Sequence record: MT446411.1
Length of the DNA: 64,000 bases
Strand: one strand, 5' to 3'
DNA from: Escherichia virus TH40
Shown: piece after piece, positions 8,188-63,541 of the stretch
How the letters are laid out: each line of letters opens with the position of its first letter
Numbering within the stretch: position 1 is the stretch's first letter
The notes under the pieces: model-generated
The model's input: only the letters and a program-made list of their open reading frames with translations
Databases searched by the model: none
What the model was told of the DNA's origin: nothing
Position numbers and translations under genes: made by a program

Positions 8188-8487
8188 TTAAAAAGAACCA
8201 GAGCCTTTAATTGTGTTCTGGCGACCTTTATTTTCGAATTCAGAATGGTCGATTTCGTATGCTTGTGCTACGCCAAAGGCCTTTTTAACTTTAGCTAAAG
8301 AACCTTTAGTTGTAACAATATTAAAAGTATTGCCTTTGGTAAAATCAACCAAATCCACTTGCACCCCTTGTTTACCAAGGCTTGCTACAATAGCATCAAC
8401 ATATTGTTGGTCTAAATTGCCTTGAACCCCAATTTGAAATGCTTTAGGAACTTTGGCTTCTGTGATAAATTCTTGATATGTTTTCAT
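8188..8487 (-). CDS. internal-protein-like head protein with capsid-targeting sequence (CTS)
   Basis: N-terminus MKTYQEFITE matches T4 IPII/IPIII CTS MKTYQEFIAE, with I-x-E prohead-protease cleavage motif. Confidence 0.7.
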   Translation of the reverse strand: MKTYQEFITEAKVPKAFQIGVQGNLDQQYVDAIVASLGKQGVQVDLVDFTKGNTFNIVTTKGSLAKVKKAFGVAQAYEIDHSEFENKGRQNTIKGSGSF

Positions 8488-8500
8488 ATTGTTTCTTTAA

Positions 8501-8815
8501 TCAAGCTTTAGGGAAATCGCGCAAAAATGCATCATAAAGTTTATTACCAATGCGACGAAATGCTTTTGCTGCATGAACGTTATCTGGGTTTGCAATTTTA
8601 ATCTGCATTACATGACTACCAGCCCATGATTTAGCTTCGTCATAATAACCTTTAATTTCTTTAATAGTCTTGCGTTTTCCACCAGGACCATCAACAGTAA
8701 TTTTCCACGAACCAGTGCTTGTTTCACTTGGTGGGGTTAACTGTTCAATCCAGACATAACCACCTTCAACACGTTGTTGAGTAGATTCAGTAATAAATTC
8801 TTGATAAGTTTTCAT
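8501..8815 (-). CDS. internal-protein-like head protein with CTS
   Basis: ATG at 8815 gives MKTYQEFITEST...; track start 8854 is an upstream extension. Confidence 0.7.
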   Translation of the reverse strand: MKTYQEFITESTQQRVEGGYVWIEQLTPPSETSTGSWKITVDGPGGKRKTIKEIKGYYDEAKSWAGSHVMQIKIANPDNVHAAKAFRRIGNKLYDAFLRDFPKA

Positions 8816-8863: not shown

Positions 8864-9280
8864 TTAAGCGTACACAGCTTTCCCATAGTATTTGTACCAG
8901 GTAGGCTTTTGAGAAATTTTCTCATTCAGTCTGGCTTGACTGATTTCAATTGACCAGATTGATGGTTGATAATCATTCTTCCATTCATCAGGAATATCAT
9001 TTAAATCTTGGGTAGAAATATCTTTTATATTAAACCCTCGCTTTAAACATTCAGCAATAAGTTCTTGATGACGGTTTTTAAGGAACAAAAGCTTATCATA
9101 AAAGAAGGTGACATGACCAGTCCCTAAAAGAAAAGATGATGGGATTTTAAAGTCAGACACCTTTTTACCATTTTGTACATGCTTACGAACAGCACCAAAC
9201 ACGCGAGGAAGCTCACGATATTCAGCCATAAGGTGTTGGTCAGCAAGTTCAGATACCAGGGTTAAATTAATGCGAGTCAT
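8864..9280 (-). CDS. denV: endonuclease V (pyrimidine-dimer DNA glycosylase)
   Basis: 138 aa; [35 protein letters not shown]... near-identical to T4 DenV. Confidence 0.92.
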
Positions 9281-9335: not shown

Positions 9336-9824
9336 CTAATAAGCGTCAAAAGTTCCAGTACGGAAAGTTTCAATAACTCGTTTGGCCCGGTTCGGAGTCT
9401 GGACTTTATACCATCTTGAGTCCGCCAGTTCCTTAGCAGCAGCTTCCCATGATTTAGCCTTGAGCAATCGCATACCCTTAGGAAAACCAGCAACACCAGC
9501 TACACCCATTTGGAATACCATATTAATGAGTGCGCAACGACGAACTTCATCCAGTACATCATAAACAGGTTTTAAGACAGGATGTTTCAAGATTCCAGAT
9601 TTAGCTTTTTCGACCGAACGATTAAACAATGTTTCGGCTTCGTGCTGGGTTATACGGCCATTACAGACGCGACCCATGAGCTTATCGAGCTCGGCACGAG
9701 CAACATCTTTCGATGGGTTCTTAGTTATCAGTTGTCCGATACCAATGGTCCAATAACCTTCGGTATCTTTATACAAATCCAACTTACAACCTTCATCTAT
9801 GCGTAACATTTCGAATATATTCAT
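9336..9824 (-). CDS. e: lysozyme (endolysin, T4 e type)
   Basis: 162 aa; [12 protein letters not shown]...[13 protein letters not shown]...[15 protein letters not shown] matches T4 lysozyme including catalytic E11/D20/T26 context. Confidence 0.95.
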
Positions 9825-16737: not shown

Positions 16738-17169
16738 TTAAATTTCAAATTCTTTGCGGAAGTTGGAAGCATAAGATTGAACTGATGCTTTGTTGAATCC
16801 AAACTCACGCACAATCATATCAATAACAGCTCTGCGAGCAGCACCATTAGACATATTAACAGTTTTGAACATATCATAGCATAAATCTTTGTTGCTCATA
16901 CCGGAGCGTTTAGGTGCCTTACGCTCAGCTTTTGGTTCAGCTTTAGGAGTAGGTTTAACCTGTCCATCATTCAGACCTTTAAAAATTTTACCCGCCAGAG
17001 TTGCCAGTTTAGCAGCTTCGCCACGAGTGATACCAAATACTGCCGGGTTAAATGAAATACCTTCAGCTGTTAAACGTTTGAAGAACATACGCGCTGCGGA
17101 TTGCGCTTCAGCTTCAGAAGAGTTGTTTAATGCCAGTTTAACGTACTTAATCAGTTTTGAAGTTTTCAT
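16738..17169 (-). CDS. hypothetical protein, paralog of 17253..17678
   Basis: ATG at 17169 (MKTSKLIKYVK...); shares AARRA(V/L)ID...VQSYASNFRK C-terminal block with neighbour. Confidence 0.5.
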   Translation of the reverse strand: MKTSKLIKYVKLALNNSSEAEAQSAARMFFKRLTAEGISFNPAVFGITRGEAAKLATLAGKIFKGLNDGQVKPTPKAEPKAERKAPKRSGMSNKDLCYDMFKTVNMSNGAARRAVIDMIVREFGFNKASVQSYASNFRKEFEI

Positions 17170-17240
17170 TTTATTATCCCGTTTGTTTATTTGGTAACTC
17201 AGTATGGGATAATTATACACTATCCCACCTGGAAGTAAAA
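17170..17240 (-). promoter_or_regulatory. early promoter cassette (-35 GTTTTAC, -10 TATAAT inside inverted repeat)
   Basis: minus-strand gtGTTTTACttccaggtGGGATAgtgTATAATTATCCCatactgagttaccaaataaacaaacGGGAtaataaaATG. Confidence 0.5.
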
Positions 17241-17252
17241 CACTTTTCTCAA

Positions 17253-17678
17253 TTATTTTTGAGCTTTGCGGAAGTTAGAAGCATAAGACTGAACAACAGT
17301 CTTTTTGATATCATGGGTAGTAACCAGAACATCAATCAGAGCGCGGCGAGCTGCATTATCATTCATATCAATTTCTGCAAATGCCTGGAAGCAAATGTCA
17401 CGGGCGTTACCAGATTTGGACTGGATTTTTTCTTCTTTAACTTCTTCAATTGGGAATTCAATCATTTCAGCTTGGATTAATTCAATGATGGACTCTTTTG
17501 ACTGTTTGGTGTTTACCTTCAGTTCAGAATTAAGGGACTTAGCGATGGCAACAATCTGGGTTGAAGTCAGATGGATAAGGGCATCTTCACGAATGCAGAT
17601 TTCACATACTTCGTCAGCAACCATTTTGTTAGTGATGCGGGTAACAGAAAATGCAGAGGTCAGGGTCAGAAAGTTCAT
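17253..17678 (-). CDS. hypothetical protein, paralog of 16738..17169
   Basis: 141 aa; C-terminal ...NAARRALIDVLV...VVQSYASNFRKAQK. Confidence 0.5.
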   Translation of the reverse strand: MNFLTLTSAFSVTRITNKMVADEVCEICIREDALIHLTSTQIVAIAKSLNSELKVNTKQSKESIIELIQAEMIEFPIEEVKEEKIQSKSGNARDICFQAFAEIDMNDNAARRALIDVLVTTHDIKKTVVQSYASNFRKAQK

Positions 17679-17745
17679 TTTATTTCTCCAAAGTTTTTGT
17701 GATTCAGTGTGTAACTCAGTATGGAATCATTATGCACCCGGTCAA
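17679..17745 (-). promoter_or_regulatory. early promoter cassette
   Basis: minus-strand GTGTACA, 17 nt spacer, CATAATgattccatactgagtta...GGAGaaataaaATG. Confidence 0.4.
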
Positions 17746-17805
17746 TTCGGATGTACACTACTTTTTGAAGAAATATTAAAAATAAACCCGCCGGAGCGGG
17801 TTTGA

Positions 17806-18360
17806 TTAGTTCTTATAAAAACGGAAGGGATTGATATGAAAGGCTAACATAGCTTTCGGGATAGGACGGGACAGAAGACTTTTTAGCTTCCAACCACAAT
17901 ACACGCGCAGATAAAAGGTGATTCCACCAACTTTAAGATAAGGTACGGAAGCGAACACGCCCCATGCATTATCATTCCACATCCAGAGCCAGCCATGGTG
18001 AGCTTTATCCGGGGAGCCCGATTCAACATCAGGATTACCTTTATAATGGAATTTAGAATCACAATCGCGGCCCAGCTTATGATAAGCAAAATTGTAGGCT
18101 TTGTTTCGCCAGAGCCAGGCCACTCGCTGGAAGTAAACGCCTAACGGCCATTTTCTGATTTTTTCCCAGCGTTTAACATGACCACGGTCGCCATCAATTG
18201 GGTTGTCGTATGTCATCATCCAGTCAAATCCAAACGGAAGCTTACCAGTCTTTTTGTTATGGAACGGCACTACAAATGGTGTAAGGATAACAGCCAGAAT
18301 CATGGAGATAAAATCCAGTGGCACTAACAGAATCCAGCTTAGATATTTTAAAAGTTTCAT
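17806..18360 (-). CDS. hypothetical protein with N-terminal transmembrane segment, late-promoter driven
   Basis: 184 aa; N-terminal ILLVPLDFISMILAVILTPFVV; TATAAATA about 27 nt upstream on minus strand. Confidence 0.55.
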   Translation of the reverse strand: MKLLKYLSWILLVPLDFISMILAVILTPFVVPFHNKKTGKLPFGFDWMMTYDNPIDGDRGHVKRWEKIRKWPLGVYFQRVAWLWRNKAYNFAYHKLGRDCDSKFHYKGNPDVESGSPDKAHHGWLWMWNDNAWGVFASVPYLKVGGITFYLRVYCGWKLKSLLSRPIPKAMLAFHINPFRFYKN

Positions 18361-18386
18361 AAATTTCCTTAGTTATGGGTACGTTA

Positions 18387-18394
18387 TATTTATA
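18387..18394 (-). promoter_or_regulatory. T4-type late promoter motif TATAAATA
   Basis: exact TATAAATA on minus strand (plus tatttata) immediately after terminator hairpin and before ATG 18360. Confidence 0.5.
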
Positions 18395-18396
18395 AA

Positions 18397-18425
18397 AAAG
18401 CCCCAACCTTTCGGAAGGGGCTATA
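18397..18425 (-). terminator. intrinsic terminator
   Basis: minus-strand GCCCCttccgaaaggttGGGGC followed by TTTTTT. Confidence 0.55.
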
Positions 18426-18459
18426 CCTTGTCGGGGTTCCACCTGCAAGGCAAGTGTTC

Positions 18460-18843
18460 TTATCCGCGGGCGAATGCCATTGCAGCGCGTTCGTTGGCAC
18501 GGTCAGTGATGTTCAAGAATTTATCACGAGCGATTTCGATTGGAGCGCCAACCCAGTCAGCGGCTCCATTACCTGGAGATTGTTTAGGACGAACCATATA
18601 AGTTGAAACTTTGGAACCAGCTAGTTTAGCACCAGGTGCAGCGGCATTCTTAACGTCTTTAGCTTTGATACCAAAACCAGTTACAATGCCCCAAGAAACA
18701 CCATTAACTGGTTTCTTGAACATAACACGGTCGCCAATTGAAACCCCAGCTTTTTCTGGAGCTACTAAAGAAAATTTACCGGCTTCAGTCAGTACGGATT
18801 CGGTGATGGTATTGCGATTTAAAAATTCTGCATATGTAAGCAT
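18460..18843 (-). CDS. candidate internal protein with degenerate CTS, late-promoter driven
   Basis: 127 aa; N-terminus MLTYAEFLNRNTITE resembles CTS MKTYQEFIAE and carries an I-T-E cleavage motif; TATAAATA upstream. Confidence 0.5.
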   Translation of the reverse strand: MLTYAEFLNRNTITESVLTEAGKFSLVAPEKAGVSIGDRVMFKKPVNGVSWGIVTGFGIKAKDVKNAAAPGAKLAGSKVSTYMVRPKQSPGNGAADWVGAPIEIARDKFLNITDRANERAAMAFARG

Positions 18844-18874
18844 TTTGTTTTTCCATTATTAGGGTTGTTGTTAA

Positions 18875-18882
18875 TATTTATA
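18875..18882 (-). promoter_or_regulatory. T4-type late promoter motif TATAAATA
   Basis: minus-strand ggaaTATAAATAttaac about 32 nt upstream of ATG 18843. Confidence 0.5.
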
Positions 18883-18892
18883 TTCCATAGTA

Positions 18893-18945
18893 CCGGATGC
18901 ACCACCCGCTCGGATTTCTCATACTACCGGGCGCACCGCCCGCTC
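18893..18945 (-). repeat. tandem direct repeat (two ~24-nt GC-rich units, each a short hairpin)
   Basis: plus taccggatgcaccacccgctcgg ... taccgggcgcaccgcccgctctgg separated by 11 nt. Confidence 0.6.
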
Positions 18946-19084
18946 TGGAAAAACTCCGTAAAAGGTGCGCCGTTTCAGCTGTGATATAAGGGGCCATTAA
19001 CAAAACATAAAGATTTATTAATGTCAGTCCTTAAACAGGGAACTTCAGTCCGACGACTTACCGGTAGCGACCCGGTTTCTTGTT

Positions 19085-19160
19085 TGGTCGAGACAGTAGG
19101 AATCGAACCTACGACCCAGGACTTAGAAGGTCCTTGCTCTTCCTTCTGAGCTATGCCTCG
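19085..19160 (-). tRNA. tRNA-Arg (anticodon UCU)
   Basis: 76-nt cloverleaf folded by hand: acceptor CGAGGCA/TGTCTCG, D-arm GCTC-AGAAGGAA-GAGC, anticodon stem AGGAC/GTCCT with loop CTTCTAA, T-arm GTAGG-TTCGATT-CCTAC, encoded CCA. Confidence 0.8.
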
Positions 19161-19293
19161 TGCTTGTTCATAGCGGGGTGGACTCGAACCACCAATATTA
19201 AGTCACTCATGCTCCAAGCATGCAGGGCACTTACCCCGGACGGAATCGAACCGCATCTACAATACCTATCGCCATGATAATTTAAAATAAGTT
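19161..19293 (-). ncRNA. unresolved tRNA-like / small stable RNA region
   Basis: two T-arm-like motifs (GGTTCGATTCC, GGTGGTTCGAGTCCACC) but no canonical cloverleaf could be folded by hand. Confidence 0.25.
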
Positions 19294-19367
19294 TGGTGGC
19301 CCTGGGTGGAATCGAACCACCATCCAGCGATTATGAGTCGCTCGCTTGACCGTCCAGCTACAGGGCC
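19294..19367 (-). tRNA. tRNA with CAU anticodon (Met, or Ile if lysidine-modified as in T4)
   Basis: 74-nt cloverleaf: acceptor GGCCCTG/CAGGGCC perfect 7 bp, anticodon stem AGCGA/TCGCT with loop CTCATAA, T-arm GGTGG-TTCGATT-CCACC, encoded CCA. Confidence 0.75.
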
Positions 19368-19445
19368 TTAATTCTATTATGAAAGGCTCTTTGAGGGAAG
19401 AACCTTTGGTAATAGAGGGTACTTATTAATAATAACGCGTTTTTA

Positions 19446-19922
19446 TTAAAGCATATCAAGTGCTTTAACGTTCAGGATTTGGATTTCTTCTTCGATGATG
19501 TATAATTTCACCCACGAAACTACGCGTATAAAATCACTATCATATTCCACTGGCTCGCCCAGCAATTCCTGGAGAGAACACAATAATTCAAATTCCTGGT
19601 CATTGTCACCTTCAACCAGATTTTCAATACAAAGTGTTTTGTTAATGAATTCAGGAGTTAATTGACCAGATTTTACACCAGATTCAATGTGTGCGATAAT
19701 CAAGTCTTTAACTATGTCCCATTCTGAATTACCACATTTATTGCGGTTATTACAATGAGAGCCTTGAAAAAGTTCCAGGATATATTTGTACTGCTGGATT
19801 TCTTGTTCTTCTACACCAAATATTGTCTGGGTTTTATAGTTGTCACCATCATTTTCCAAGGTTTCAATTTCAATCACATAACCTTTAGGGATGGTCTGAC
19901 CAAATTTAATATTCATAATCAA
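19446..19922 (-). CDS. hypothetical acidic protein
   Basis: 158-aa ORF. Confidence 0.5.
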   Translation of the reverse strand: MIMNIKFGQTIPKGYVIEIETLENDGDNYKTQTIFGVEEQEIQQYKYILELFQGSHCNNRNKCGNSEWDIVKDLIIAHIESGVKSGQLTPEFINKTLCIENLVEGDNDQEFELLCSLQELLGEPVEYDSDFIRVVSWVKLYIIEEEIQILNVKALDML

Positions 19923-20299
19923 CCTTCATCAACAATAGTATGGGTATTAGCATTAACAATCTGCCACCAGTCAAAACGGTTAGAACCATATTGAGGCTTA
20001 TTCTCGTTTTCTTTAATGATATCACGCAGTTCATCTTCGGTAGCGGCTTTTGCGATTAGGTCTGCATAACCGCCACGGGGATAATAGTTATCGCCAGCAA
20101 AGAGTAAAAAGTTTGTTTTGATATTCTTGAATTCTTCAAGAGTAATAACCGTTCCAGATGGTTGAACAATATCTACGTAACTATATCCTAATTTCTGGGC
20201 ATTATCTACCGCTTCAAGCAGGGTGTCATGTGCCCACCCAATTTGACATTCTGGTTTTTCAGATGGATTTGCCTGATAATCTGCATACACTTTATACAT
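19919..20299 (-). CDS. hypothetical protein
   Basis: ATG at 20299 with SD; track start 20347 is an upstream extension. Confidence 0.5.
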   Translation of the reverse strand: MYKVYADYQANPSEKPECQIGWAHDTLLEAVDNAQKLGYSYVDIVQPSGTVITLEEFKNIKTNFLLFAGDNYYPRGGYADLIAKAATEDELRDIIKENENKPQYGSNRFDWWQIVNANTHTIVDEG

Positions 20300-20300
20300 T

Positions 20301-20486
20301 TTACTCACCTTTAGAGATTTTATCCATAACGAAAGAGATTGAACCAATTAAGAATGCAACTACTAAAGAGATTATATTCTCAGAAGTTGAAAGCATATTC
20401 AACATAAAGCCAGCAAACATGCTAAAACCAAAAGCGGTAACAGCAACAAGGGCAGTAACATTTCTAATTAATTCGCAACGTTTCAT
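20301..20486 (-). CDS. hypothetical small membrane protein
   Basis: 61 aa, two hydrophobic helices; GAGGAG SD and promoter cassette upstream. Confidence 0.5.
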   Translation of the reverse strand: MKRCELIRNVTALVAVTAFGFSMFAGFMLNMLSTSENIISLVVAFLIGSISFVMDKISKGE

Positions 20487-20530
20487 TTTATTCTCCTCAG
20501 TAGTTAATGGGATAATTATGCACTATCCCA
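20487..20530 (-). promoter_or_regulatory. early promoter cassette
   Basis: minus-strand GGGATAgtgCATAATTATCCCattaactactGAGGAGaataaaATG. Confidence 0.45.
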
Positions 20531-20543
20531 TTCAAAAGTACAC

Positions 20544-20777
20544 TTATTTTTTACGGAAAATTGATTTATACTGTTTAGCCCATTTCTCGATAACTTCTGC
20601 CGGACCCTGGATAACAAAATAGTCCCCAAACTCTTCACCGCCGAGCTGACCGTAATTATCTAAGGCGTCGCGGAGAGTTCCATAAGGCATTTCGCCCATT
20701 TTATCTTTCTTGCCGGTGTAAATGAATTGCACTTTAACATCAGCAGTTTCATTAATAAATTCTTGATAAGTTTTCAT
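20544..20777 (-). CDS. internal-protein-like small protein with CTS
   Basis: 77 aa; N-terminus MKTYQEFINE (CTS with I-N-E cleavage motif). Confidence 0.7.
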   Translation of the reverse strand: MKTYQEFINETADVKVQFIYTGKKDKMGEMPYGTLRDALDNYGQLGGEEFGDYFVIQGPAEVIEKWAKQYKSIFRKK

Positions 20778-20832
20778 GTTGTCTCCAGTAGTTGATGGGA
20801 TAATTATACTGCAGTTATCCCAGCGCGTATAC
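20778..20832 (-). promoter_or_regulatory. early promoter cassette
   Basis: minus-strand GTATAC...GGGATAactgcagTATAATTATCCCatcaactactGGAGAcaacATG. Confidence 0.45.
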
Positions 20833-21075
20833 TTATTTTAAGTCTTCCAGACGTTTTTTCATCTTGGTACCATTCTTAGCAATTTCGCCTGCATCAGAAC
20901 AAAGAGCAAGGAGAGCTTTAACTTTACCCTGGTCGCCTTTAAAAGATGATGCATCTACAGAATCAGCAAGTTCTTTGATGCGAGCAAACAGACGCTCTGC
21001 TTCAGCAAGGGCTTGACCAAGTTTAACTTCCATACCATGAGAAGATTCATTAATAAATGTTTGATAAGTTTTCAT
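20833..21075 (-). CDS. internal-protein-like small protein with CTS
   Basis: 80 aa; N-terminus MKTYQTFINE. Confidence 0.7.
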   Translation of the reverse strand: MKTYQTFINESSHGMEVKLGQALAEAERLFARIKELADSVDASSFKGDQGKVKALLALCSDAGEIAKNGTKMKKRLEDLK

Positions 21076-21083
21076 TTGAAATC

Positions 21084-21356
21084 CTATTTTAGATAAATTG
21101 CGTATTTTTTATACCCAGCTGTCTCATGGCGGAGACCCTTGTCATTGGCAAAACGCTCAATGTTATTAATTTGGTTCTGGTCAAGTTCTGAAATGTCAAA
21201 CGCGAAAAAGTTGCGTTTGTTTCCAATTGTTATATGGTCAGTTAAGTCAATGCTATACAGGTGATTGATATTGTCAATCATAGCTTTGACTGCTTTACTA
21301 ATTTTTACTTCTTCATTCAGTTGGGACTCGTTGAAAAGTTCATTAAAAGTTTTCAT
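21084..21356 (-). CDS. internal-protein-like small protein with CTS-like N-terminus
   Basis: 90 aa; N-terminus MKTFNELFNE. Confidence 0.6.
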   Translation of the reverse strand: MKTFNELFNESQLNEEVKISKAVKAMIDNINHLYSIDLTDHITIGNKRNFFAFDISELDQNQINNIERFANDKGLRHETAGYKKYAIYLK

Positions 21357-21364
21357 AAGAAACC

Positions 21365-21697
21365 TTATTTATACAGTTTAGCTAGTTCTTTACGTCCGCG
21401 AGCAGACATAATGAATTGTTCATCACCAATTTTGAAATAAGCCATGCCGCCGTCAACAGCGATACCAATTTCTTTAGTACCTTCTTTACCTTTCCACTTG
21501 CCACCAGATTTTAGGACAGCTTCAACTGCAGCTTTGGAATATTTGGATGTTTGAAAACGTTCATTACCAATCTGAAAGAAAACACCATCTGCATTTTTGG
21601 ATAAACCAAATTTCAGAGAGCCTTCACTATCATCAATTGATTTAGTCTCATTGATGGCGGATTCGGCTAAAAACTCATTATAAGTCTTGATGTTCAT
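21365..21697 (-). CDS. internal-protein-like protein with CTS-like N-terminus
   Basis: ATG at 21697 with GGAG SD gives MNIKTYNEFLAES... Confidence 0.6.
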   Translation of the reverse strand: MNIKTYNEFLAESAINETKSIDDSEGSLKFGLSKNADGVFFQIGNERFQTSKYSKAAVEAVLKSGGKWKGKEGTKEIGIAVDGGMAYFKIGDEQFIMSARGRKELAKLYK

Positions 21698-21750
21698 TTT
21701 AACTCCGTTTGTTCGTTGGTGTAGGAACATAATACTGTGCCTACACTCAT
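21698..21750 (-). promoter_or_regulatory. early promoter cassette
   Basis: minus-strand GTGTAGGcacagTATTATgttCCTACACcaacgaacaaacGGAGttaaaATG. Confidence 0.4.
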
Positions 21751-21757
21751 TTGTACA

Positions 21758-22448
<691 letters not shown>

Positions 22449-22449
<1 letters not shown>

Positions 22450-23126
22450 TATATTACCTTATTAATTTTATCAAAAAGTTCTTCGAGTGTGCCATCGTTT
22501 TTAATAACAATGTCACTAGCTAGTGGTGGAAGTCCAGCTTCCGTAATGTGTGTATCAGTAGAATGATTTGCTTCATCGCGTTCTACAAAGATTATTGTAG
22601 CACCCATCGCCCGAAGCGAATCAAGTTCGTTCTTTTGGCGAACATCAGGGACAACGTAATATTTATATCCAGAATAGAGGTTGTCAAGATAATCGCACGC
22701 AAAAGTTTTAATCCAAAACATGCTGTCGAACTCTGTACAAACGATGTCAGTTCCAAGGGTCTGCATGAAACGTCTAACTGTCCAGGGCTCAACATTATTT
22801 AGTGTGTGAAATTCAATGATTTTACGAACCATATCTGGATTCGGAAGGTCAAGATTATATTGTTGTTTTAACCATTCAAGAGCATCAACCAGAAGAATAT
22901 AAGCTTCGGTATTGTTCATTATCAAGGTTTTTTCACGGTCATAACCTTGTCCATCAAAATTTTCCAGGGTCAAATTGTGTGGCAGGTCTTGACGAACCCA
23001 CGCTTTATAAAGCGCTTCTTTAATTGGACCAGCAAGTTGCCACTTTGTTCCGTTTTGACTAATAACATAATCAGCGGTCGTATCTTTACCACTGCGTTTT
23101 TTACCCACAATCGCAATTAATTTCAT
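22449..23126 (-). CDS. 1: deoxynucleoside monophosphate kinase
   Basis: 225 aa; MKLIAIVGKKRSGKDTTADYV... matches T4 gp1 P-loop N-terminus. Confidence 0.9.
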
Positions 23127-49364: not shown

Positions 49365-50939
49365 ATGGCAGGTTTTAACACAATACTAAATTTTCTTAAG
49401 CCTTGGGCTAAAGAAGATGAACAAGAATATAAGCAACAAGAAAAAAATAATTTAGAGTCAATGACCGGGCCGAAGTTTGACGATGGGGCTCGCGAAATTG
49501 AGTCACAAGAACAAAACGTCCCGTATAATGCATTGATGCAACAGATGTTCGGGAGTAATGAACCTGAAGTAAAAAATACCAGGGAATTAATTGACACTTA
49601 CCGCAACTTACTAAATAATTATGAAGTTGATAACGCGGTGCAAGAAATTGTGTCTGATGCTATCGTTTTTGAAGACGGTAAAGATGTTGTATCTCTTAAC
49701 CTTGATGCTACCGAATTTAGTCAGAAAATTAAAGACCGAATCCTCGAAGAATTCTCGGAAGTTAATAACCTCCTTAATTTCGAGCGTAAAGGTTCTGACC
49801 ACTTTAAACGTTGGTATGTGGATTCTCGAATTTTCTTCCACAAAATTATCAACCCAGCAAAACTTAAAGATGGGGTCCAAGAACTTCGTCGCCTTGACCC
49901 AAGACAAATCCAGTTCATCCGTGAAATCGTTACACGCATGGAAAATGGTACAAAAATTGTCGACGGTTACAGAGAATATTTTGTATACGATACTGGCCAT
50001 GAAAGTTATTGTGCCGATGGTCGTATATATGAAGCGGGTACTAAAATAAAAATTCCTCGTGCGGCGATTGTATATGCGCATTCTGGATTACTCGATTGCT
50101 GTGGTAAGAATATCATCGGATACTTACAACGAGCAATTAAACCTGCAAACCAATTAAAACTATTAGAAGATGCTTTAGTCATTTATCGTATAACTCGTGC
50201 ACCAGACCGCCGAGTCTTTTATATCGATACCGGGAATATGCCGTCTCGTAAAGCAGCAGCACACATGCAACATATTATGAATACGATGAAAAACCGTGTC
50301 GTATATGATGCAACCACGGGTAAAATCAAAAATCAACAGCACAACATGTCTATGACAGAAGACTATTGGTTGCAACGTCGTGATGGTAAAGCAGTCACCG
50401 AAGTTGATACTCTCCCGGGCGCGCAAGGCATGTCGGATATGGACGATGTTCGCTGGTTTAAGAACAACCTATATCAGGCTCTCCGAATTCCATTATCTCG
50501 TATCCCTAATGACCAAAACAGCGGCGTTATGTTTGATGCGGGCGCGACAATTACTCGCGATGAATTGAATTTCTCTAAATGGATTAGGCAGCTACAGAAT
50601 AAATTTGAAGAAGTTTTCCTCGACCCGCTTAAAACCAACCTTATCCTGAAAAAAATTATTTCAGAAGAGGAATGGGAAAAGGAACTAAATAATATTAAAG
50701 TTACGTTCAACCGTGATAGCTATTTCACTGAAATGAAAGACGCAGAAATCATGGAACGCAGAATCAATATGCTAACGATGGCTGAACCGTTTATCGGTAA
50801 ATATATTTCGCATCAAACGGCTATGAAGGACTTCCTCCAGATGTCTGATGAAGAAATTAATCAAGAAGCTAAGCAAATTGAATTGGAGTCCAAAGAGGCT
50901 CGTTTCCAAAACCCTGAAGAAGAAGAAGAGGATTTCTAA
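49365..50939 (+). CDS. 20: portal vertex protein gp20
   Basis: 524 aa, same as T4 gp20. Confidence 0.92.
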
Positions 50940-51193
50940 TGGATGATTTATTTGAAGCCATTAAATCAAACGACCTCGTAGCCGTTCGCAAATATTTTGC
51001 TGAAAACATTGGCCCAGTATGCGGTAGTTTGATTGAAGAACGTAAGATTGAAATTGCACGTTCCATCATGATTGAAGGCGAAGAGCCTAAAGAAGATGAT
51101 GAAGACGGTAAAGCAGAAAAGAAAGACAAAAAAGAATCTGATGACGCTGACGAAGGCGACGATGACGAAGATGATGATGAGGACGATGAATAA
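50939..51193 (+). CDS. 67: prohead core protein gp67
   Basis: 84 aa with poly-acidic C-terminus, between 20 and 68 as in T4. Confidence 0.8.
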
Positions 51194-51621
51194 TGTTTAT
51201 TATCCCTGATGATTACGAATTAACTCTTGAAAACATTGAAAGTGTTTCCGAAGAAGCTCAGGGACAATTTGATTCATTATCTGAAGCCTTAGAAAAAGAC
51301 GATATAAATATTATTGTAGAAAACATGTTTGCAGCCGGTGAATATGAAAAAGCAACGGTTATCGGCGCGCTGAATGAAGGTGTTCAGCTTAACGAATTTA
51401 TCGTTAAACATGTATCGTCTCGCGGCGAGTTAACCCGCACAAAAGACCTAGCTACTCGTAAGCGTAATGCTTTCCAAACAACTGGTCTTTCTAAAGCTAA
51501 ACGTCGTCAAATTGCCCGTCTGGCTACTAAAACAAAAAGAGCAAACCCATCTACGCAAATCAGAGCAGAGCGCAAGCGCAAAAAAGCTCGAGCTAAGCGT
51601 AAAGCATTCGGACTTGATTAA
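51193..51621 (+). CDS. 68: prohead core protein gp68
   Basis: 142 aa, position as in T4. Confidence 0.8.
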
Positions 51622-52259
51622 TGGAACAGAAACCAGAGTTACTAATTGAACACTGGGGTCAACCGGGCGAAATTAAAGATGGTGTACCGATGTTGGAATC
51701 TCATGACGGTTCCAGCAGCGGTTTAAAGCCAGGACTTTATATTGAAGGTATTTTCCTACAAGCTGAAGTTGTTAACCGTAATAAACGACTTTATCCTAAA
51801 CATATTTTGGAAAAAGCCGTTGCTGATTATATGACAGAACAGGTTGCTACTAAACAAGCTTTAGGAGAATTAAATCATCCGCCCCGTGCTAACGTCGACC
51901 CTATGCAAGCCGCTATTATTATTGAAGATATGTGGTGGAAAGGTAATGATGTATATGGCCGAGCGCGTATTATCGAAGGCGACCATGGCCCAGGTGATAA
52001 ACTTGCTGCAAATATAAGAGCAGGTTGGATTCCAGGTGTATCTAGTCGTGGACTTGGTTCCTTGACTAAATCAGCAAAAGGTTATAGCATCGTTAATGAA
52101 GGTTTTAAATTGACGGTTGGAGTAGATGCAGTATGGGGGCCAAGTGCTCCGGACGCTTGGGTCAAACCAAAGCAGATTACAGAATCACAAACGGCAGTTG
52201 CCGATACCAGTGCCGATGACGCCTTTATGGCTCTCGCAGAGGCTTTAAAGACGTTATAA
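51621..52259 (+). CDS. 21: prohead core protease gp21
   Basis: 212 aa, same as T4 gp21. Confidence 0.9.
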   Translation: MEQKPELLIEHWGQPGEIKDGVPMLESHDGSSSGLKPGLYIEGIFLQAEVVNRNKRLYPKHILEKAVADYMTEQVATKQALGELNHPPRANVDPMQAAIIIEDMWWKGNDVYGRARIIEGDHGPGDKLAANIRAGWIPGVSSRGLGSLTKSAKGYSIVNEGFKLTVGVDAVWGPSAPDAWVKPKQITESQTAVADTSADDAFMALAEALKTL

Positions 52260-52262
52260 ATA
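52255..52262 (+). promoter_or_regulatory. T4-type late promoter TATAAATA
   Basis: exact motif overlapping gene 21 stop, upstream of gene 22. Confidence 0.6.
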
Positions 52263-52291
52263 AATGTATATCTTAACAACAGGACTACAAA

Positions 52292-53110
52292 ATGCTTAAA
52301 GAACAACTCATTTCTGAAGCTCAGAATATCGATGCTTCCGTTGCTCTCGATAGTATTTTCGAATCAGTTAATTTGTCCCCGGAAGCGAAAGCTACCTTCG
52401 GCACTGTATTCGAAGCTACCGTCAAGCAACACGCCATCAAACTGGCAGAATCTCACATTCACGCCATCGCTGAAAAAGCTGAAGAAGAAGTCGAAAAGAA
52501 TAAAGAAGAAGCCGACGAAAAAGCAGAGAAAAAACTGAAAGAATCTGCAGCTAAATTCCTGGACCACGTTGCTAAAGAATGGCTCGCTGAAAATAAACTG
52601 GCTGTCGACCGTGGCATTAAAGCTGACCTGTTCGAATCCATGTTCACCGGCATGAAAGAACTGTTCGTTGAGCACAACGTTGTTGTTCCAGAAGAATCTG
52701 TCGATGTTGTTGCAGAAATGCAGGAAGAACTGGCTGAACAGAAAGAAGAAACCGCTAATCTGTTCGAAGAAGTTGCTAAGCGTGATGCTTATATCAATTA
52801 TGTCCAACGTGAAGTTGCGTTGACTGAAGCGACTAAAGACCTGACTGAATCTCAAAAAGAAAAAGTTGGTTCTCTGGTAGAAGGCATGGAATACTCTGAT
52901 GCATTCGGTACCAAAATTGGCGTTATCGTTGAAATGGTTAAAGGTCAGGTAGAACCCACCGACAAACCAATCACCGAAGCCGCTATAAATAAAAATGTAG
53001 ACGATGCTGCGGCACTGAATTACATTTCAGAAGCAGTTGAAGAAAAAGGCGCCAAGCCTACCCTGTCCTTCGCGGACTTGTCTGCTCTCGCAGCATCACG
53101 AATTTCTTAA
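52292..53110 (+). CDS. 22: prohead core scaffold protein gp22
   Basis: 272 aa, acidic coiled-coil. Confidence 0.88.
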   Translation: MLKEQLISEAQNIDASVALDSIFESVNLSPEAKATFGTVFEATVKQHAIKLAESHIHAIAEKAEEEVEKNKEEADEKAEKKLKESAAKFLDHVAKEWLAENKLAVDRGIKADLFESMFTGMKELFVEHNVVVPEESVDVVAEMQEELAEQKEETANLFEEVAKRDAYINYVQREVALTEATKDLTESQKEKVGSLVEGMEYSDAFGTKIGVIVEMVKGQVEPTDKPITEAAINKNVDDAAALNYISEAVEEKGAKPTLSFADLSALAASRIS

Positions 53111-53131: not shown

Positions 53132-54691
53132 ATGAAAAAGAATGCATTAGTTCAAAAATGGTCCGCTCTGCTGGAAAACGAAGCTCTTCCGGAAATCGTT
53201 GGTGCTTCTAAACAAGCTATCATCGCTAAAATCTTTGAAAACCAGGAACAAGATATTCTGACCGCTCCTGAATACCGTGACGAAAAAATCTCCGAAGCAT
53301 TTGGTTCTTTCCTGACCGAAGCTGAAATCGGTGGTGACCATGGTTATGATGCTACCAATATCGCTGCTGGCCAGACCTCTGGTGCAGTAACTCAGATTGG
53401 GCCGGCAGTTATGGGTATGGTTCGTCGTGCTATCCCGCATCTGATTGCGTTTGATATTTGTGGCGTACAGCCTCTGAACAACCCGACTGGCCAGGTATTT
53501 GCCCTGCGTGCAGTTTACGGTAAAGACCCTGTAGCTGCTGGTGCTAAAGAAGCTTTCCACCCGATGTATGCTCCAAATGCTATGTTCTCTGGTCAGGGCG
53601 CTGCTGAGGCTTTCGAAGCTCTGGCTGCAAGCAAAGTTCTTACCGTTGGTAAAATTTATTCTCACTTCTTCGAAGCAACCGGTGCCGCGCACTTCCAGGC
53701 TGTTGAAGCTGTAACCGTTGATGCTGCTGCTACTGATGCCGCTAAACTTGACGCCGAAGTTACCAAACTGCTCGAAGCTGGTAAGCTGGCCGAAATCGCT
53801 GAAGGTATGGCTACCTCTATCGCCGAATTGCAGGAAGGCTTCAACGGTTCTACTGATAACCCGTGGAACGAAATGGGCTTCCGTATCGATAAACAAGTTA
53901 TCGAAGCTAAATCCCGTCAGCTGAAAGCAAGTTACTCCATCGAACTGGCACAGGACCTGCGCGCTGTTCATGGTATGGATGCTGATGCCGAATTGAGTGG
54001 TATTCTGGCTACCGAAATTATGCTGGAAATCAACCGCGAAGTTATCGATTGGATTAACTACTCCGCACAGGTTGGTAAATCTGGTATGACCAACACCGTT
54101 GGCGCTAAAGCTGGTGTGTTTGACTTCCAGGACCCGATTGATATCCGTGGCGCTCGTTGGGCTGGTGAAAGCTTCAAAGCTTTACTGTTCCAGATTGATA
54201 AAGAAGCCGCTGAAATCGCTCGTCAGACTGGCCGTGGTGCAGGTAACTTCATCATCGCTTCCCGTAACGTAGTTAACGTACTGGCTGCAGTTGATACCTC
54301 CGTATCTTATGCTGCTCAGGGTCTGGGTAAAGGTTTCAACGTTGACACCACTAAAGCTGTGTTCGCTGGTGTTCTGGGTGGCAAATACCGTGTATACATC
54401 GACCAGTATGCTCGTGCAGACTATTTCACCATCGGTTACAAAGGCGCTAACGAAATGGATGCTGGTATCTACTACGCACCATATGTTGCACTGACCCCGC
54501 TGCGTGGCTCTGACCCGAAAAACTTCCAGCCGGTTATGGGCTTCAAAACCCGTTACGGTATCGGTATTAACCCGTTCGCTGACCCGGTAGCTCAGGCTCC
54601 AACCAAGCGCATTCAGAACGGCATGCCGGACATCGTTAACAGCCTCGGCTTGAACGGTTACTTCCGCCGCGTATATGTTAAAGGAATTTAA
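53132..54691 (+). CDS. 23: major capsid protein gp23
   Basis: 519 aa (T4 gp23 521 aa). Confidence 0.95.
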   Translation: MKKNALVQKWSALLENEALPEIVGASKQAIIAKIFENQEQDILTAPEYRDEKISEAFGSFLTEAEIGGDHGYDATNIAAGQTSGAVTQIGPAVMGMVRRAIPHLIAFDICGVQPLNNPTGQVFALRAVYGKDPVAAGAKEAFHPMYAPNAMFSGQGAAEAFEALAASKVLTVGKIYSHFFEATGAAHFQAVEAVTVDAAATDAAKLDAEVTKLLEAGKLAEIAEGMATSIAELQEGFNGSTDNPWNEMGFRIDKQVIEAKSRQLKASYSIELAQDLRAVHGMDADAELSGILATEIMLEINREVIDWINYSAQVGKSGMTNTVGAKAGVFDFQDPIDIRGARWAGESFKALLFQIDKEAAEIARQTGRGAGNFIIASRNVVNVLAAVDTSVSYAAQGLGKGFNVDTTKAVFAGVLGGKYRVYIDQYARADYFTIGYKGANEMDAGIYYAPYVALTPLRGSDPKNFQPVMGFKTRYGIGINPFADPVAQAPTKRIQNGMPDIVNSLGLNGYFRRVYVKGI

Positions 54692-55134: not shown

Positions 55135-56415
55135 ATGGCAAAGATTAACAAATTACTGCGCGAGTCAACTATTACTACCAGCAACTCCTTGGGCCGCCCG
55201 AATCTTGTTGCTTTGACCCGCGCTACGACTAAATTGATTTACCGCGATATCATCGCTGAACAACGTACTAACCAACCTGTTGCTGCACTGTATGGTGTTA
55301 AATATCTTACTCCTGATAATGAATTCAGTTTCCAGACGGGCGCTACTTATGGAGGCGAAGTCGGTTCTAAAGACCGCACAACTATTCCAGAATTAACTAC
55401 AGCCACTCAGCCTGTGGCTAAAGGCGAATATGTAAAATACCAAAATATCGTTTACAAAGCTCTGGTTGATAATCCATTTGCATCGACCACAGAAACAGTG
55501 TTATCTGATGTTCTGCAAGAAGGTCTTATTGCATCGACTATTCGCCTTGTTCCTGATGCCGCACACACTGAAAAATTCGAAGCCGGTGATGTTGAAATTA
55601 GCAATGCTGTATTCCAGGTTAATAAATGGAATGCTCCGGTTAAAACACGTAAATTGAAAACTGCATTAACTGTTGAACTTGCTCAGGATATGGAAGCAAA
55701 TGGTTTTAACGCTCCTGCTTTCTTGGAAGACCTGCTTGCCACTATTATGGCAGATGAAATTAACAAAGATGTTCTTCAGTCTCTTATTACCGTTTCCAAG
55801 CGTTATAAAGTAACTGGCGTTTCTGACAATGGCACCATCGATTTAACATATGATGCAGCTCCAGAAGGCGCACGTAAACTGTATGAACTGGTTTGCGAAA
55901 TGAACTCCGAAATTCAGAAAACTACATCTTATTCCGGTACCTTTGTTGTTGCCTCTAGCCGTGTTGCTGCTATGTTGGCCGGTTCTGGTTGGTTGAAACA
56001 CAGACCAGAAGACGAACAGTGGCTCCCCGAAACAGCGTACGGTTATTTGATTAATGGCCTCCCTGTATTCTGTGATGTTAACAGTCCATTGGATTATGTA
56101 ACTGTTGGTGTTAAAGAAAATTACGGCGGAAACGAAGTCGTAGGCTCAATTTTCTATGCTCCTTATACCGAAGGCCTGGACTTGGATGATGAAGAGCACG
56201 TTGGTGCGTTTAAGGTCATTGTGGACCCAGACAGCTTGCAGCCATCTATCTCTCTGATGGTTCGTTACGCACTTTCAGCTAACCCGTACACCGTTGCTAA
56301 AGACGATAAAGAAGCTCGTATTATCGATGCAACCAATATGGATTTAATGGCCGGTCAGAGCAATATGTCTTATCTGCTCGGTGTTAAACTTCCGCCAATC
56401 ATTTATGAGGCGTAA
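55135..56415 (+). CDS. 24: capsid vertex protein gp24
   Basis: 426 aa; MAKINKLLRESTITTSNSLGRPNLVALTRATTKLIY close to T4 gp24. Confidence 0.92.
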   Translation: MAKINKLLRESTITTSNSLGRPNLVALTRATTKLIYRDIIAEQRTNQPVAALYGVKYLTPDNEFSFQTGATYGGEVGSKDRTTIPELTTATQPVAKGEYVKYQNIVYKALVDNPFASTTETVLSDVLQEGLIASTIRLVPDAAHTEKFEAGDVEISNAVFQVNKWNAPVKTRKLKTALTVELAQDMEANGFNAPAFLEDLLATIMADEINKDVLQSLITVSKRYKVTGVSDNGTIDLTYDAAPEGARKLYELVCEMNSEIQKTTSYSGTFVVASSRVAAMLAGSGWLKHRPEDEQWLPETAYGYLINGLPVFCDVNSPLDYVTVGVKENYGGNEVVGSIFYAPYTEGLDLDDEEHVGAFKVIVDPDSLQPSISLMVRYALSANPYTVAKDDKEARIIDATNMDLMAGQSNMSYLLGVKLPPIIYEA

Positions 56416-57699
56416 ATGCAAAAGATTAATGCACTAATTCACGAATCAACATTAACGGCGGCCAACCAGGTCGCCCGTCCTAATTTGCTTTCTTATACTC
56501 AGGCTACGAATAAACGAATTTTTAAAGCACTCGTGGCCGAACAGAAAACTACCCAGCCTGTTGCAGCCCTGTATGGTGTTCGTGTTCTGAACCCAGATGA
56601 TAAAATGACTTATCTCGGTGGAGCAACATTTGCAGGTCAGATTGGTATGTTCGAGCGTAAGAATATTCCAGAATTTACAAACAAAGACGAAGCTTATGCA
56701 GTCGGCGATATGTTCCAGTTTGAAAGTGTTGTGTTCAAAGTTTTGGAAGCATCCCCATTCGCCGGTACACTCGAAACTGATTTAGGTGAAGTTATTTCTG
56801 AAGCCATTGCTGCTGGGCATATAAGAATGATGTCAGATGCTGCTTTCACTGATAAATTTGAAAAGGGGCATCCTGAAATTGCTGAAGCTGGTTTTCGTAT
56901 CGATAAATGGCAGACTGAAGTTAAATCCAGAAAGTTGAAAACTTCTTTAACTGTCGAGCTTGCCCAGGACCTGGAAGCAAACGGTTTTGATGCAACAGAC
57001 TTCATCGATAATATTCTCGGCATTCAAATGGCAGAGGAAATTAATAAGGATGTATTGCAATCCCTTATTACTGTTAGTTCCCGCTTCAAGGTGCAAGGTG
57101 TTTCGGAAAAAGGTGTATTGAATCTTACTGACCCGAAATATGATAATGCCCAGGACCGCGCACGAACCCTGTATTATTATATGTGTGAAATGAATTCTGC
57201 AGTTCAACGTCAGACTTCGTTTGCTGGTACATATGCAGTTGCTTCTTCCCGTTGTGCAGCTATTTTAGCCGCTTCTGGCTGGGTTGAGAAAAAGGAAGAC
57301 CAGGATGAATTGGCCTATGGTGTTCTGAAGAACGGTTTGCCTCTTTACGCTGATATGAATAGTCCATGCGATTATGTTATTGTTGGTGTAAATGCGGATA
57401 TGGGTGAAGGTCAGACGGTCGCATCTTTATATTATGCGCCTTATACGGAAGGACTTAGCGAAGTTGATGATGAGGGTGATACCTCGGTTGGGGAATTCAA
57501 GGTTATTGTTGACCCCGAAAGCTTACAACCTACGGTTGCACTGTTAGCTCGTTATGCTTTGACTGCGAACCCTTACACCGTTGCTAAAGATGATAAAGAA
57601 GCTCGCCTTATTGATGGAGCTGATATGGATAAGATGGCTAACCAAAGTCAATTGAGTTCTTATCTTGGTGTTAAACTTCCACCGCTGGAAAAAGAATAA
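56416..57699 (+). CDS. capsid vertex protein gp24 paralog (second tandem copy)
   Basis: 427 aa; MQKINALIHESTLTAANQVARPNLLSYTQATNKRIF... collinear with upstream gp24 but diverged. Confidence 0.85.
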   Translation: MQKINALIHESTLTAANQVARPNLLSYTQATNKRIFKALVAEQKTTQPVAALYGVRVLNPDDKMTYLGGATFAGQIGMFERKNIPEFTNKDEAYAVGDMFQFESVVFKVLEASPFAGTLETDLGEVISEAIAAGHIRMMSDAAFTDKFEKGHPEIAEAGFRIDKWQTEVKSRKLKTSLTVELAQDLEANGFDATDFIDNILGIQMAEEINKDVLQSLITVSSRFKVQGVSEKGVLNLTDPKYDNAQDRARTLYYYMCEMNSAVQRQTSFAGTYAVASSRCAAILAASGWVEKKEDQDELAYGVLKNGLPLYADMNSPCDYVIVGVNADMGEGQTVASLYYAPYTEGLSEVDDEGDTSVGEFKVIVDPESLQPTVALLARYALTANPYTVAKDDKEARLIDGADMDKMANQSQLSSYLGVKLPPLEKE

Positions 57700-62849: not shown

Positions 62850-63541
62850 ATTATCAAAAAATATATGATGATTTAATTGGGAGTCGAAAGGCTTCCAAAC
62901 CGATTGGATATACAGAATCTCACCATATCATTCCAGAATGTATGGGTGGGCCTGATACACAAGAAAACAGAGTCAACCTTACTCCGGAAGAACATTTCAT
63001 TGCACATAAATTATTGGCCAAAATTCATCCCAATCATTACGGTCTTATAAAGGCCGTCATTGCTATGGGTATGAGCTCTCGGACACACCAACGACAATTT
63101 AATAAATCGTATGGATGGGAGCGTAGACAAATGTCAGTTCTTCAAACGGGTGAAGGTAATCCTTTTTATGGTAAGCACCATACTGAAGAACATAAAGAAT
63201 ATATGAGTCAATTATTGAAGGGTCGCAAAATAACTTGGGCTGATAAAATATCCGTGACAAAGAAAGCGAATCCGTATAAATACTCTCAAGCACAATGTCA
63301 AGCTATATCAGAAAGAAATAAAGGTGAAGGCAATTGGATGTATGGTAAATCACATACACCAGAAGCATCGAAGAAAATTTCAGATAAAGCGAAAGAACGT
63401 TATAAAGACCCGTCTAAAAATCCGGCAGCTAAAAAGGTTGTTATAGGTGGAGTTGAATATGGTTCAATGAAACAAGCTTCAGAAGCTACGGGGCTTTCTA
63501 AATATAAAATTAGAAATTTAATTAAACAGGTGGAAATATAA
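62846..63541 (+). mobile_element. freestanding HNH-family homing endonuclease gene with NUMOD-like repeats
   Basis: 231 aa; HNH core ESHHIIPECMGG...ENRVNLTPEEHFIAH, NUMOD-like GNPFYGKHHTEEHK and GNWMYGKSHTPEASKK, helix-turn-helix-like C-terminus; TTG start overlapping uvsW stop; inserted between uvsW and uvsW.1. Confidence 0.65.
63519..63537 (+). repeat. 19-bp direct repeat, copy 2 (3' end of HNH gene)
   Basis: taattaaacaggtggaaat; both uvsW and the HNH ORF end with residues ...IKQVEI. Confidence 0.8.

Follow-up and report, generated by a model that had tools for sequence, protein, structure and literature searches.

The stretch of DNA analysed here, hereafter the window, comprises 64,000 nucleotides of Escherichia virus TH40 (record MT446411.1) and comes from a Gaprivervirus genome, i.e., that of a T4-like phage of the Tevenvirinae. 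Within positions 20544-21697 the ORF listing and the minus-strand sequence place four consecutive small genes, all on the minus strand, which are given below together with the neighbouring gene on either side.

20301-20486, minus strand: trna.4, a small membrane protein (PHROG 1692), by synteny the conserved downstream flank of the slot
20544-20777, minus strand: ip6, 77 aa, leader MKTYQEFINE
20833-21075, minus strand: ip5, 80 aa, leader MKTYQTFINE
21084-21356, minus strand: ip9, 90 aa, leader MKTFNELFNE
21365-21697, minus strand: the fourth gene, of the VR7 gp156 family and here called orf4, 110 aa, leader MNIKTYNEFLAE
21758-22213, minus strand: 57B/Acb1 (Pfam PF23474 Acb1, E 1e-59), the conserved upstream flank by synteny with VR26 and T4

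The coordinates and N-termini of these four tandem genes agree exactly with those reported in the preliminary description of this DNA. A ribosome-binding site of the GGAG/AGGA type lies 7-8 nt upstream of each of the four. For orf4 there is an alternative in-frame ATG upstream, at 21730, and either start is used in public records; we favour 21697 because the homologues begin directly at MKTY. An Rfam search of positions 17000-23000 returned two tRNAs and nothing else.

A 2-kb query around the array matched 385 phage records, among them Escherichia phage vB_EcoM_VR26, to which it aligned from end to end at 97.5% identity. The VR26 annotation reads, in order, a hypothetical protein (VR7 gp156-like), ip9, ip5 and ip6, between 57B and trna.4, with 57A, gp1, gp3 and gp2 upstream and tRNA genes downstream, and the order in the window is identical. 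The window shares families, locus and leader with the Ip5, Ip6 and Ip9 systems annotated in VR7, VR25, VR26, RB51, RB15 and T6. It departs from them in nothing substantial: against VR26 about 2.5% of the nucleotides are changed, and its Ip9 leader is divergent. Synteny from 57B to trna.4 shows that the corresponding slot of T4 holds ipI alone, as had been claimed. Comparison across T4-like genomes likewise upheld the description of the locus as hypervariable, since the content of the slot differs among close relatives. The Gapriverviruses compared all have the pair orf4-ip9 and differ in their distal cassettes, as follows.

Window and VR26: orf4, ip9, ip5, ip6
VR25: orf4, ip9, a 99-aa protein starting MQTFHEFLVE, ip6
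EAWsc9: orf4, ip9, the VR25-type 99-aa MQTFHEFLVE protein, ip5, an 84-aa protein
RZ: orf4, ip9, ip5, an 84-aa protein, a 73-aa protein
SP18: orf4, ip9, a pseudogene, a 92-aa protein
T4: ipI only

What the four proteins have in common is their N-terminus. A regular expression for this leader gave six matches in a six-frame translation of the window, each of which forms the start of a minus-strand ORF; in 100 shuffles the strict form of the pattern gave 0 matches. Four of the matches are the array genes and the other two form a second internal-protein locus.

8501-8815, minus strand: 104 aa, leader MKTYQEFITE, PHROG 3966
8188-8487, minus strand: 99 aa, leader MKTYQEFITE, PHROG 2667 (internal head protein)

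This pair sits downstream of e and denV, and its T4 counterpart is ipIII/ipII beside e and denV. Across the six genes, mean amino-acid identity is 68% in codons 1-10 vs 7% in codons 11-40. When the leaders were removed and nine sequences compared by BLASTP (the four array proteins, the two from 8188-8815 and T4 IPI, IPII and IPIII), no significant pairwise similarity was found, the best E being 0.08. The claim that the array proteins are otherwise unrelated to each other is thus sound at the level of BLASTP, but in a profile comparison the alignment of Ip6 with the first repeat of the orf4 protein ran on after the leader and took in 46 columns (30% identity, probability 95%), which makes a remote relationship between these two possible.

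The N-terminus had been equated with the capsid targeting sequence of T4 IPI, IPII and IPIII alike. This is right for IPII and IPIII, whose leader MKTYQEFIAE nearly equals MKTYQEFINE and MKTYQTFINE, although both are encoded elsewhere in T4 (by e and denV) and their mature parts are unrelated to those of the array proteins. It does not extend to T4 IPI, with its 19-residue leader MKTFKEFTSTTTPVSTITE ending in I-T-E as against 10-12 residues in the window. The likeness to IPI/IPI* lies instead in the slot between 57B and trna.4 and in the combination of a cleavable leader with a small mature protein; the mature parts are without similarity, and one gene stands in T4 where the window has four. 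A reading of the N-termini as signal peptides was dropped because the leaders are acidic and aromatic and have no hydrophobic core.

The T4 leader is well characterised. The first ten residues of IPIII suffice to target foreign proteins into the T4 head, mutagenesis of IPIII has shown positions 4 and 7 to be critical for targeting and 8 and 10 for processing, the prohead protease gp21 cuts after Glu in L/I-x-E, and the internal proteins enter the scaffolding core before the shell closes (PMC9026906). In three of the four leaders (Ip6, Ip5 and orf4) the critical positions are occupied by Y, F, I/L and E, so that position 4 is aromatic and position 7 is Phe as targeting requires, and the leaders end in I-N-E (Ip6 and Ip5) or L-A-E (orf4), which conform to the L/I-x-E motif. 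The orf4 leader is displaced two residues from the N-terminus (MNI-KTY...). The Ip9 leader has these targeting residues in part: it reads F4, as in T4 IPI, then L7, F8 and E10, and ends in F-N-E, with a canonical L-N-E at residues 13-15. The (L/I)-x-E cleavage sites that the preliminary description had ascribed to the array are therefore present in three leaders but not at the end of the Ip9 leader. The protease and core genes on which such a leader depends lie in the same window, at 50939-53110.

50939-51193, plus strand: gp67, core protein (Pfam PF17634, among the matches at 50939-53110)
51193-51621, plus strand: gp68, core protein, assigned by position only and without a Pfam match
51621-52259, plus strand: gp21 prohead protease (PF03420 Peptidase_S77, E 6e-102)
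52292-53110, plus strand: gp22 scaffold (Pfam PF25623, among the matches at 50939-53110)

Elsewhere in the window, an ORFan at 18460-18843 has a leader-like start, MLTYAEFLNRNTITE, and a late promoter. It could encode a further, unrecognised packaged protein with a long leader of the IPI type.

All four array proteins have PHROG matches (E 1e-33 to 1e-56), and the Ip families are matched over their full length, with E-values of 1e-41 to 1e-56 for the internal head and virion protein families. Ip6 falls in PHROG 8111 (internal virion protein, E 2.5e-51), Ip5 in PHROG 3499 (internal head protein, E 2e-41), Ip9 in PHROG 7673 (internal head protein) and the orf4 protein in PHROG 3966, of unknown function. 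By tblastn the families occur in 245 (Ip6), 496 (Ip5), 172 (Ip9) and 55 (orf4) phage records. Ip6 is 100% identical to Ip6 of VR7, and the VR26 record reads 'similar to T6 Ip6'. Ip5 has 82% identity to Ip5 of RB51 and 81% to a T2 protein, copies about 49% identical to it adjoin the lysozyme gene e in RB69-like phages, and the sequence pattern of its mature part suggests helices. Ip9 is 100% identical to Ip9 of VR7 and 78% identical to that of RB15 (UniProt Q38376); most members of its family carry the standard leader MKTYQEFIxE, of which MKTFNELFNE in the window is a divergent variant. Ip7 of phage OLB35 matches Ip9 in the C-terminal half only, which points to exchange within genes too.

None of the four proteins had a match in Pfam, and sequence searches of the PDB with all four gave nothing meaningful, the sole matches being weak ones of coiled-coil type for Ip5. 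The best similarity of any window protein to T4 IPI* was E 0.41 over 15 residues, and judged on their mature parts the window proteins do not belong to the IPI* family. IPI* itself is reportedly an inhibitor of GmrSD, a result said to come from Bair, Rifat and Black in 2007 and from Rifat and co-workers in 2008.

The fourth gene is the one without a family name. Among the listed records of the 55 that hold it, it is labelled 'hypothetical', and in one further record 'profilin'. Its homologues at 47-72% identity start MKTYxEF[LI]xE. When 1.84 billion representative proteins were searched with an orf4 profile, seven were returned; four of the five that we read are about 100-111 aa long and start MKT[YF]K.FL.ES, and relatives found at the profile level with less than 40% identity still start MKT[YF]xxFLxES. 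The other matches, P0032 (E 4e-6) and P0035 (E 3e-4), were weak and partial ones to longer proteins with repeats, and the search turned up no recognisable cellular homologue and no Whirly or PUR protein. Given the leader-bearing homologues and these profile-level relatives, we therefore conclude from sequence that orf4 is an unnamed internal-protein family. PHROG 3966 also includes the 8501-8815 protein, and homology of the two proteins was considered on that ground and rejected: profile comparison aligned only the 12-residue leader, and this PHROG is apparently held together largely by the leader.

The two halves of the orf4 protein align with each other (hhalign probability 95%), i.e., the protein contains an internal duplication, and Ip6 could be a single-repeat relative of it. 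Structure prediction, which the preliminary description had proposed as a check, was run on two of the proteins. The Ip9 model (pLDDT 76.6) shows an alpha-beta sandwich without special features, and its structural matches were uninformative. The AlphaFold2 model of orf4 (pLDDT 75.5, pTM 0.62) has a leader helix followed by two beta4-alpha units, predicted to form a Whirly-like domain. This predicted fold is similar to those of Whirly, PUR-alpha and MRP1-MRP2, which are binders of single-stranded nucleic acid, at 8-14% sequence identity to the respective structures. However, the similarity comes without a sequence-family match: no hit to Pfam PurA, Whirly, SsgA or MRP was obtained at E <= 10 from any of 11 members of the orf4 family, which thus lies outside these families by sequence. 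We regard the Whirly/PUR-like fold as a lead and not as a finding because of this lack of Pfam support and the moderate confidence of the model. If the lead is good, the orf4 family may bind single-stranded nucleic acid at DNA entry, e.g., to shield the DNA end or to sequester defence RNA, and its binding mode would then differ from the enzyme inhibition exerted by Ip1, Ip2 and Ip3. The joint reading, in which orf4 would found an injected Whirly/PUR-like family and the 18460-18843 protein would be packaged as well, is speculative and in our judgement improbable.

The longer intergenic regions of the array resemble each other and carry predicted regulatory elements, listed here with a late-promoter motif.

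21698-21765, minus strand: element between 57B and orf4, with -35-like GTGTAC, a 7-bp stem-loop GTGTAGG...CCTACAC containing -10-like TATTAT, then the ribosome-binding site
20778-20840, minus strand: element between ip5 and ip6, with GTATAC, a stem-loop GGGATAA...TTATCCC containing TATAAT, then the ribosome-binding site
20487-20551, minus strand: element between ip6 and trna.4, a second copy of the promoter/stem-loop repeat (fold -13.9 kcal/mol, z -2.7)
21366-21373, minus strand: TATAAATA, a T4 late-promoter motif, which overlaps the stop codon of orf4; the ATG of ip9 follows 10 nt downstream

The three elements align with one another and with the 57B|ipI and ipI|trna.4 regions of T4. Their consensus is -35-like GT(G/T)TAC, a hairpin with -10-like TA(T/C)(A/T)AT and a ribosome-binding site, with hairpin fold energies of -8.8 to -14 kcal/mol; the 57B-orf4 element was also matched by a promoter scan at 21757-21729 (fold -14 kcal/mol, z -1.9). 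The elements at 20778-20840 and 20487-20551 are direct repeats (D3 and D8, 86-92% identity) that bracket the ip6 cassette, and ip5 and ip6 themselves share 86-93% DNA identity over their first 29-43 nt. In sequence the elements look like the PeSL shuffling elements of T4-like phages (Arbiol et al. 2010; Comeau et al. 2014, PMC4122927), since a putative early-type promoter, a stem-loop and a ribosome-binding site are repeated beside variable ORFs and occur on both sides of a variable cassette. They differ in one respect: published figures of PeSLs place the stem-loop upstream of the promoter, whereas in the window the -10 hexamer is inside the loop or the 3' arm of the hairpin. The pattern of cassettes, repeats and within-gene exchange matches the PeSL shuffling model, from which we infer recombination, and the PeSL authors themselves tie that model to the 1994 observations on the internal-protein locus (PMC4122927). 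The late-promoter motif occurs 21 times in the 64-kb window vs 5.3 expected. The copy at 21366-21373 is a candidate promoter for ip9, although its sequence may simply reflect the codons L-Y-K-stop, with which it coincides, and the distance to the ATG is as short as 10 nt.

The explanation we favour, at a probability of roughly 85%, is that the array is a hyperplastic ipI locus of a Gaprivervirus, i.e., four leader-tagged internal-protein genes whose products are packaged, cleaved and injected to act against host defences, and which are shuffled as cassettes. By analogy with T4 IPIII, the leader of about ten residues would bind each protein to the gp22/gp67/gp68 core during prohead assembly, and gp21 would then cut after the terminal Glu of the leader. 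The mature protein of 7-11 kDa would remain in the head with the DNA, be injected with it at the next infection and most likely act at once on entry against host defences. The array itself would gain, lose and swap cassettes by recombination at the repeated promoter/stem-loop elements and at the conserved leader-coding 5' ends. Packaging, cleavage and injection of the four proteins are well-founded predictions by analogy to T4; a literature search found no virion proteomics for Gapriverviruses. Set against this explanation are the L7/F8 and F-N-E of the Ip9 leader, the displacement of the orf4 leader and the lack of resemblance of any array protein to T4 IPI*.

The proteins might instead be packaged mainly as bulk DNA-associated head contents, serving charge balance, condensation or ejection, or protection of the DNA end, and not as specific inhibitors. 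The mature orf4 and Ip5 proteins are basic (pI 9.3 and 8.8), the modelled Whirly/PUR-like fold of orf4 is typical of single-stranded nucleic-acid binders, and solid-state NMR work, in the passage where a review cites it (PMC3012670), has internal-protein lysines touching DNA phosphates. However, Ip9 and Ip6 in their mature form have pI values close to neutral (6.8 and 7.8), and a bulk role leaves unexplained why sequence-unrelated proteins are swapped among near-identical phages. Furthermore, all three T4 internal proteins tested are specific inhibitors: the GmrSD enzyme inhibited is from E. coli CT596 for Ip1, from ECOR21 for Ip2 and from ECOR17 for Ip3, with no cross-activity (PMC12373910). 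We consider such a bulk role unlikely.

Somewhat less probable still is that one or more cassettes, with Ip9 and orf4 as the candidates, are decaying or non-functional and are expressed but unpackaged. The Ip9 leader departs from the consensus of its own family at positions 4, 7 and 8, and the SP18 slot contains a pseudogene, yet T4 IPI likewise has F at position 4, the ORFs are kept at full length behind good ribosome-binding sites, and both Ip9 and orf4 are 98-100% conserved across many Gaprivervirus isolates. Very unlikely is that the shared 5' end is kept mainly as DNA or RNA, as a translation-initiation or recombination handle, with some ORFs not targeted to the head, since, for all the nucleotide identity of the ip5 and ip6 starts and the repeated intergenic elements that bracket cassettes, distant members hold the amino-acid pattern with differing codons (E10 is GAG or GAA, and position 8, I/L, is ATT, ATC, TTA or TTC), relatives less than 40% identical keep the MKT[YF]xxFLxES start, and the ten-residue IPIII leader alone packages foreign proteins (PMC9026906). 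A role of the 5' end at the DNA or RNA level and a protein-targeting role are not mutually exclusive.

Within the favoured explanation of packaged and injected internal proteins, the precedent of T4 Ip1, Ip2 and Ip3 makes an anti-defence role the best bet, at odds slightly better than even. The preliminary description had already read the array as a set of injected anti-defence effectors, which is also the accepted view in the literature (PMC3012670; PMC12373910), where internal proteins are seen as a diverse defence set with the leader alone in common (PMC3012670). When ten further ip genes, unnamed in the main text of that study, were set against five more active GmrSD systems, no new inhibition was found (PMC12373910). 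The modification of Gaprivervirus DNA is unsettled (PMC8056088), and the relevant restriction enzymes may therefore differ from those of T4. Our searches of the literature for Ip5, Ip6 and Ip9, which were swamped by inositol-phosphate papers, found no published target for any of them.

The novelty that the preliminary description implied for an expanded array does not stand. In later papers, Repoila, Tetart, Bouet and Krisch (1994, EMBO J 13:4181) are credited with the hypervariable internal-protein locus of T-even phages (PMC12373910, PMC3012670, PMC4122927, PMC9026906) and with the concept of unrelated small proteins that share the leader alone and are presumed to be injected counter-defence factors. 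The names ip5, ip6 and ip9, borne by three of the four genes, reportedly derive from that work, and the concept is restated in reviews (PMC3012670, PMC9026906) and in a functional study of 2025 (PMC12373910). Because the concept is thus credited to 1994 and a public genome, VR26, has exactly this array of four genes, we class the array as already known, together with its leader, its variability and the hypothesis of an anti-defence role; all of this is textbook knowledge and no new concept arises. The additions made here are small, namely the recognition of the orf4 family as an internal protein, the flanking promoter/stem-loop repeats and the ORFan at 18460-18843.

The value of the array lies in its pointing to uncharacterised members of the internal-protein set and to a gap in annotation, as the orf4 family should carry the internal protein label. 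To our knowledge, targets are known for just three internal proteins, T4 Ip1, Ip2 and Ip3, and we found no assigned function for Ip5, Ip6, Ip9 or the orf4 family, each of which is represented in 55 to 496 sequenced phages. Host immunity meets injected internal proteins before any other protein of the phage. To learn what these families target would add to the known arms race between phages and type IV restriction or other defences, and would bear on the prediction of host range for therapeutic T4-like phages.

The internal-protein genes of the window are not confined to the four-gene array at 20544-21697, as a second locus lies downstream of both denV and the lysozyme gene e:

8188-8487, minus strand, leader-bearing gene with the start MKTYQEFITE
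8501-8815, minus strand, leader-bearing gene with the same start
8864-9280, denV
9336-9824, lysozyme e

This locus is the counterpart of the T4 ipII/ipIII locus, although the proteins differ from those of T4, as does their order relative to denV. The 8188-8487 product falls into PHROG 2667 (internal head protein), that of 8501-8815 into PHROG 3966.

A further gene, encoding a 127-aa ORFan, may specify an additional packaged protein:

~18395-18425, terminator-like hairpin and T-run, downstream of the ORFan
18460-18843, minus strand, leader-like ORFan, N-terminus MLTYAEFLNRNTITE
18875-18882, late-promoter motif TATAAATA, 32 nt upstream of the ORFan

Its N-terminus matches the capsid targeting sequence at T3, Y4, E6, F7 and L8, and residues 13-15 form an I-T-E site, which also ends the long leader of T4 IPI. 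No family was found for it in PHROG or Pfam. Just 15 phage records contain it, every copy at least 99% identical; most label it 'hypothetical' and the remainder are unannotated. In a database of 5.8 billion proteins it falls in a single cluster.

The main array is adjoined on its upstream side by gene 57B:

21758-22213, minus strand, 57B, Pfam Acb1 (anti-CBASS nuclease), E 1e-59

This match places a known anti-defence gene beside the internal-protein cassettes. Between 57B and trna.4, the phages EAWsc9 and VR25 carry a 99-aa protein with the variant leader MQTFHEFLVE (positions 1530-1829 and 1450-1749 of their respective slot-locus sequences). It is labelled 'internal head protein' in VR25 and 'homing endonuclease' in EAWsc9, and the latter looks like a mis-annotation. 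Variation also extends inside genes: the C-terminal 35 residues of Ip9 (21084-21356), SELDQNQINNIERFANDKGLRHE.AGYKKYAIYLK, share ~80% identity with the C-terminus of Ip7 from phage OLB35, while the N-terminal half of that protein is unrelated to Ip9, a pattern which points to mosaicism within internal-protein genes.

Elsewhere in the window, the vertex protein gp24 is represented by two adjacent paralogues directly after gp23, and a homing-endonuclease-like ORF is flanked on one side by a DNA-helicase ORF of 512 aa and on the other by an ORF of 75 aa that likewise matches a helicase family:

53132-54691, gp23
55135-56415, plus strand, gp24-like ORF, 426 aa, PHROG 138 (major-head-protein)
56416-57699, plus strand, gp24-like ORF, 427 aa, PHROG 138
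62846-63541, plus strand, homing-endonuclease-like ORF, PHROG 655, E 6e-57

The endonuclease arrangement suggests that a mobile element of this kind either splits or follows a helicase gene, uvsW-like judging by its position.

The products of 8501-8815 and 21365-21697 both give full-length matches to PHROG 3966 (E ~1e-33 each), but when compared with each other as profiles they align only over their 12-residue leaders. From these alignments, PHROG 3966 seems to group unrelated mature domains through their common leader, a reason for caution in annotation drawn from the PHROG library.
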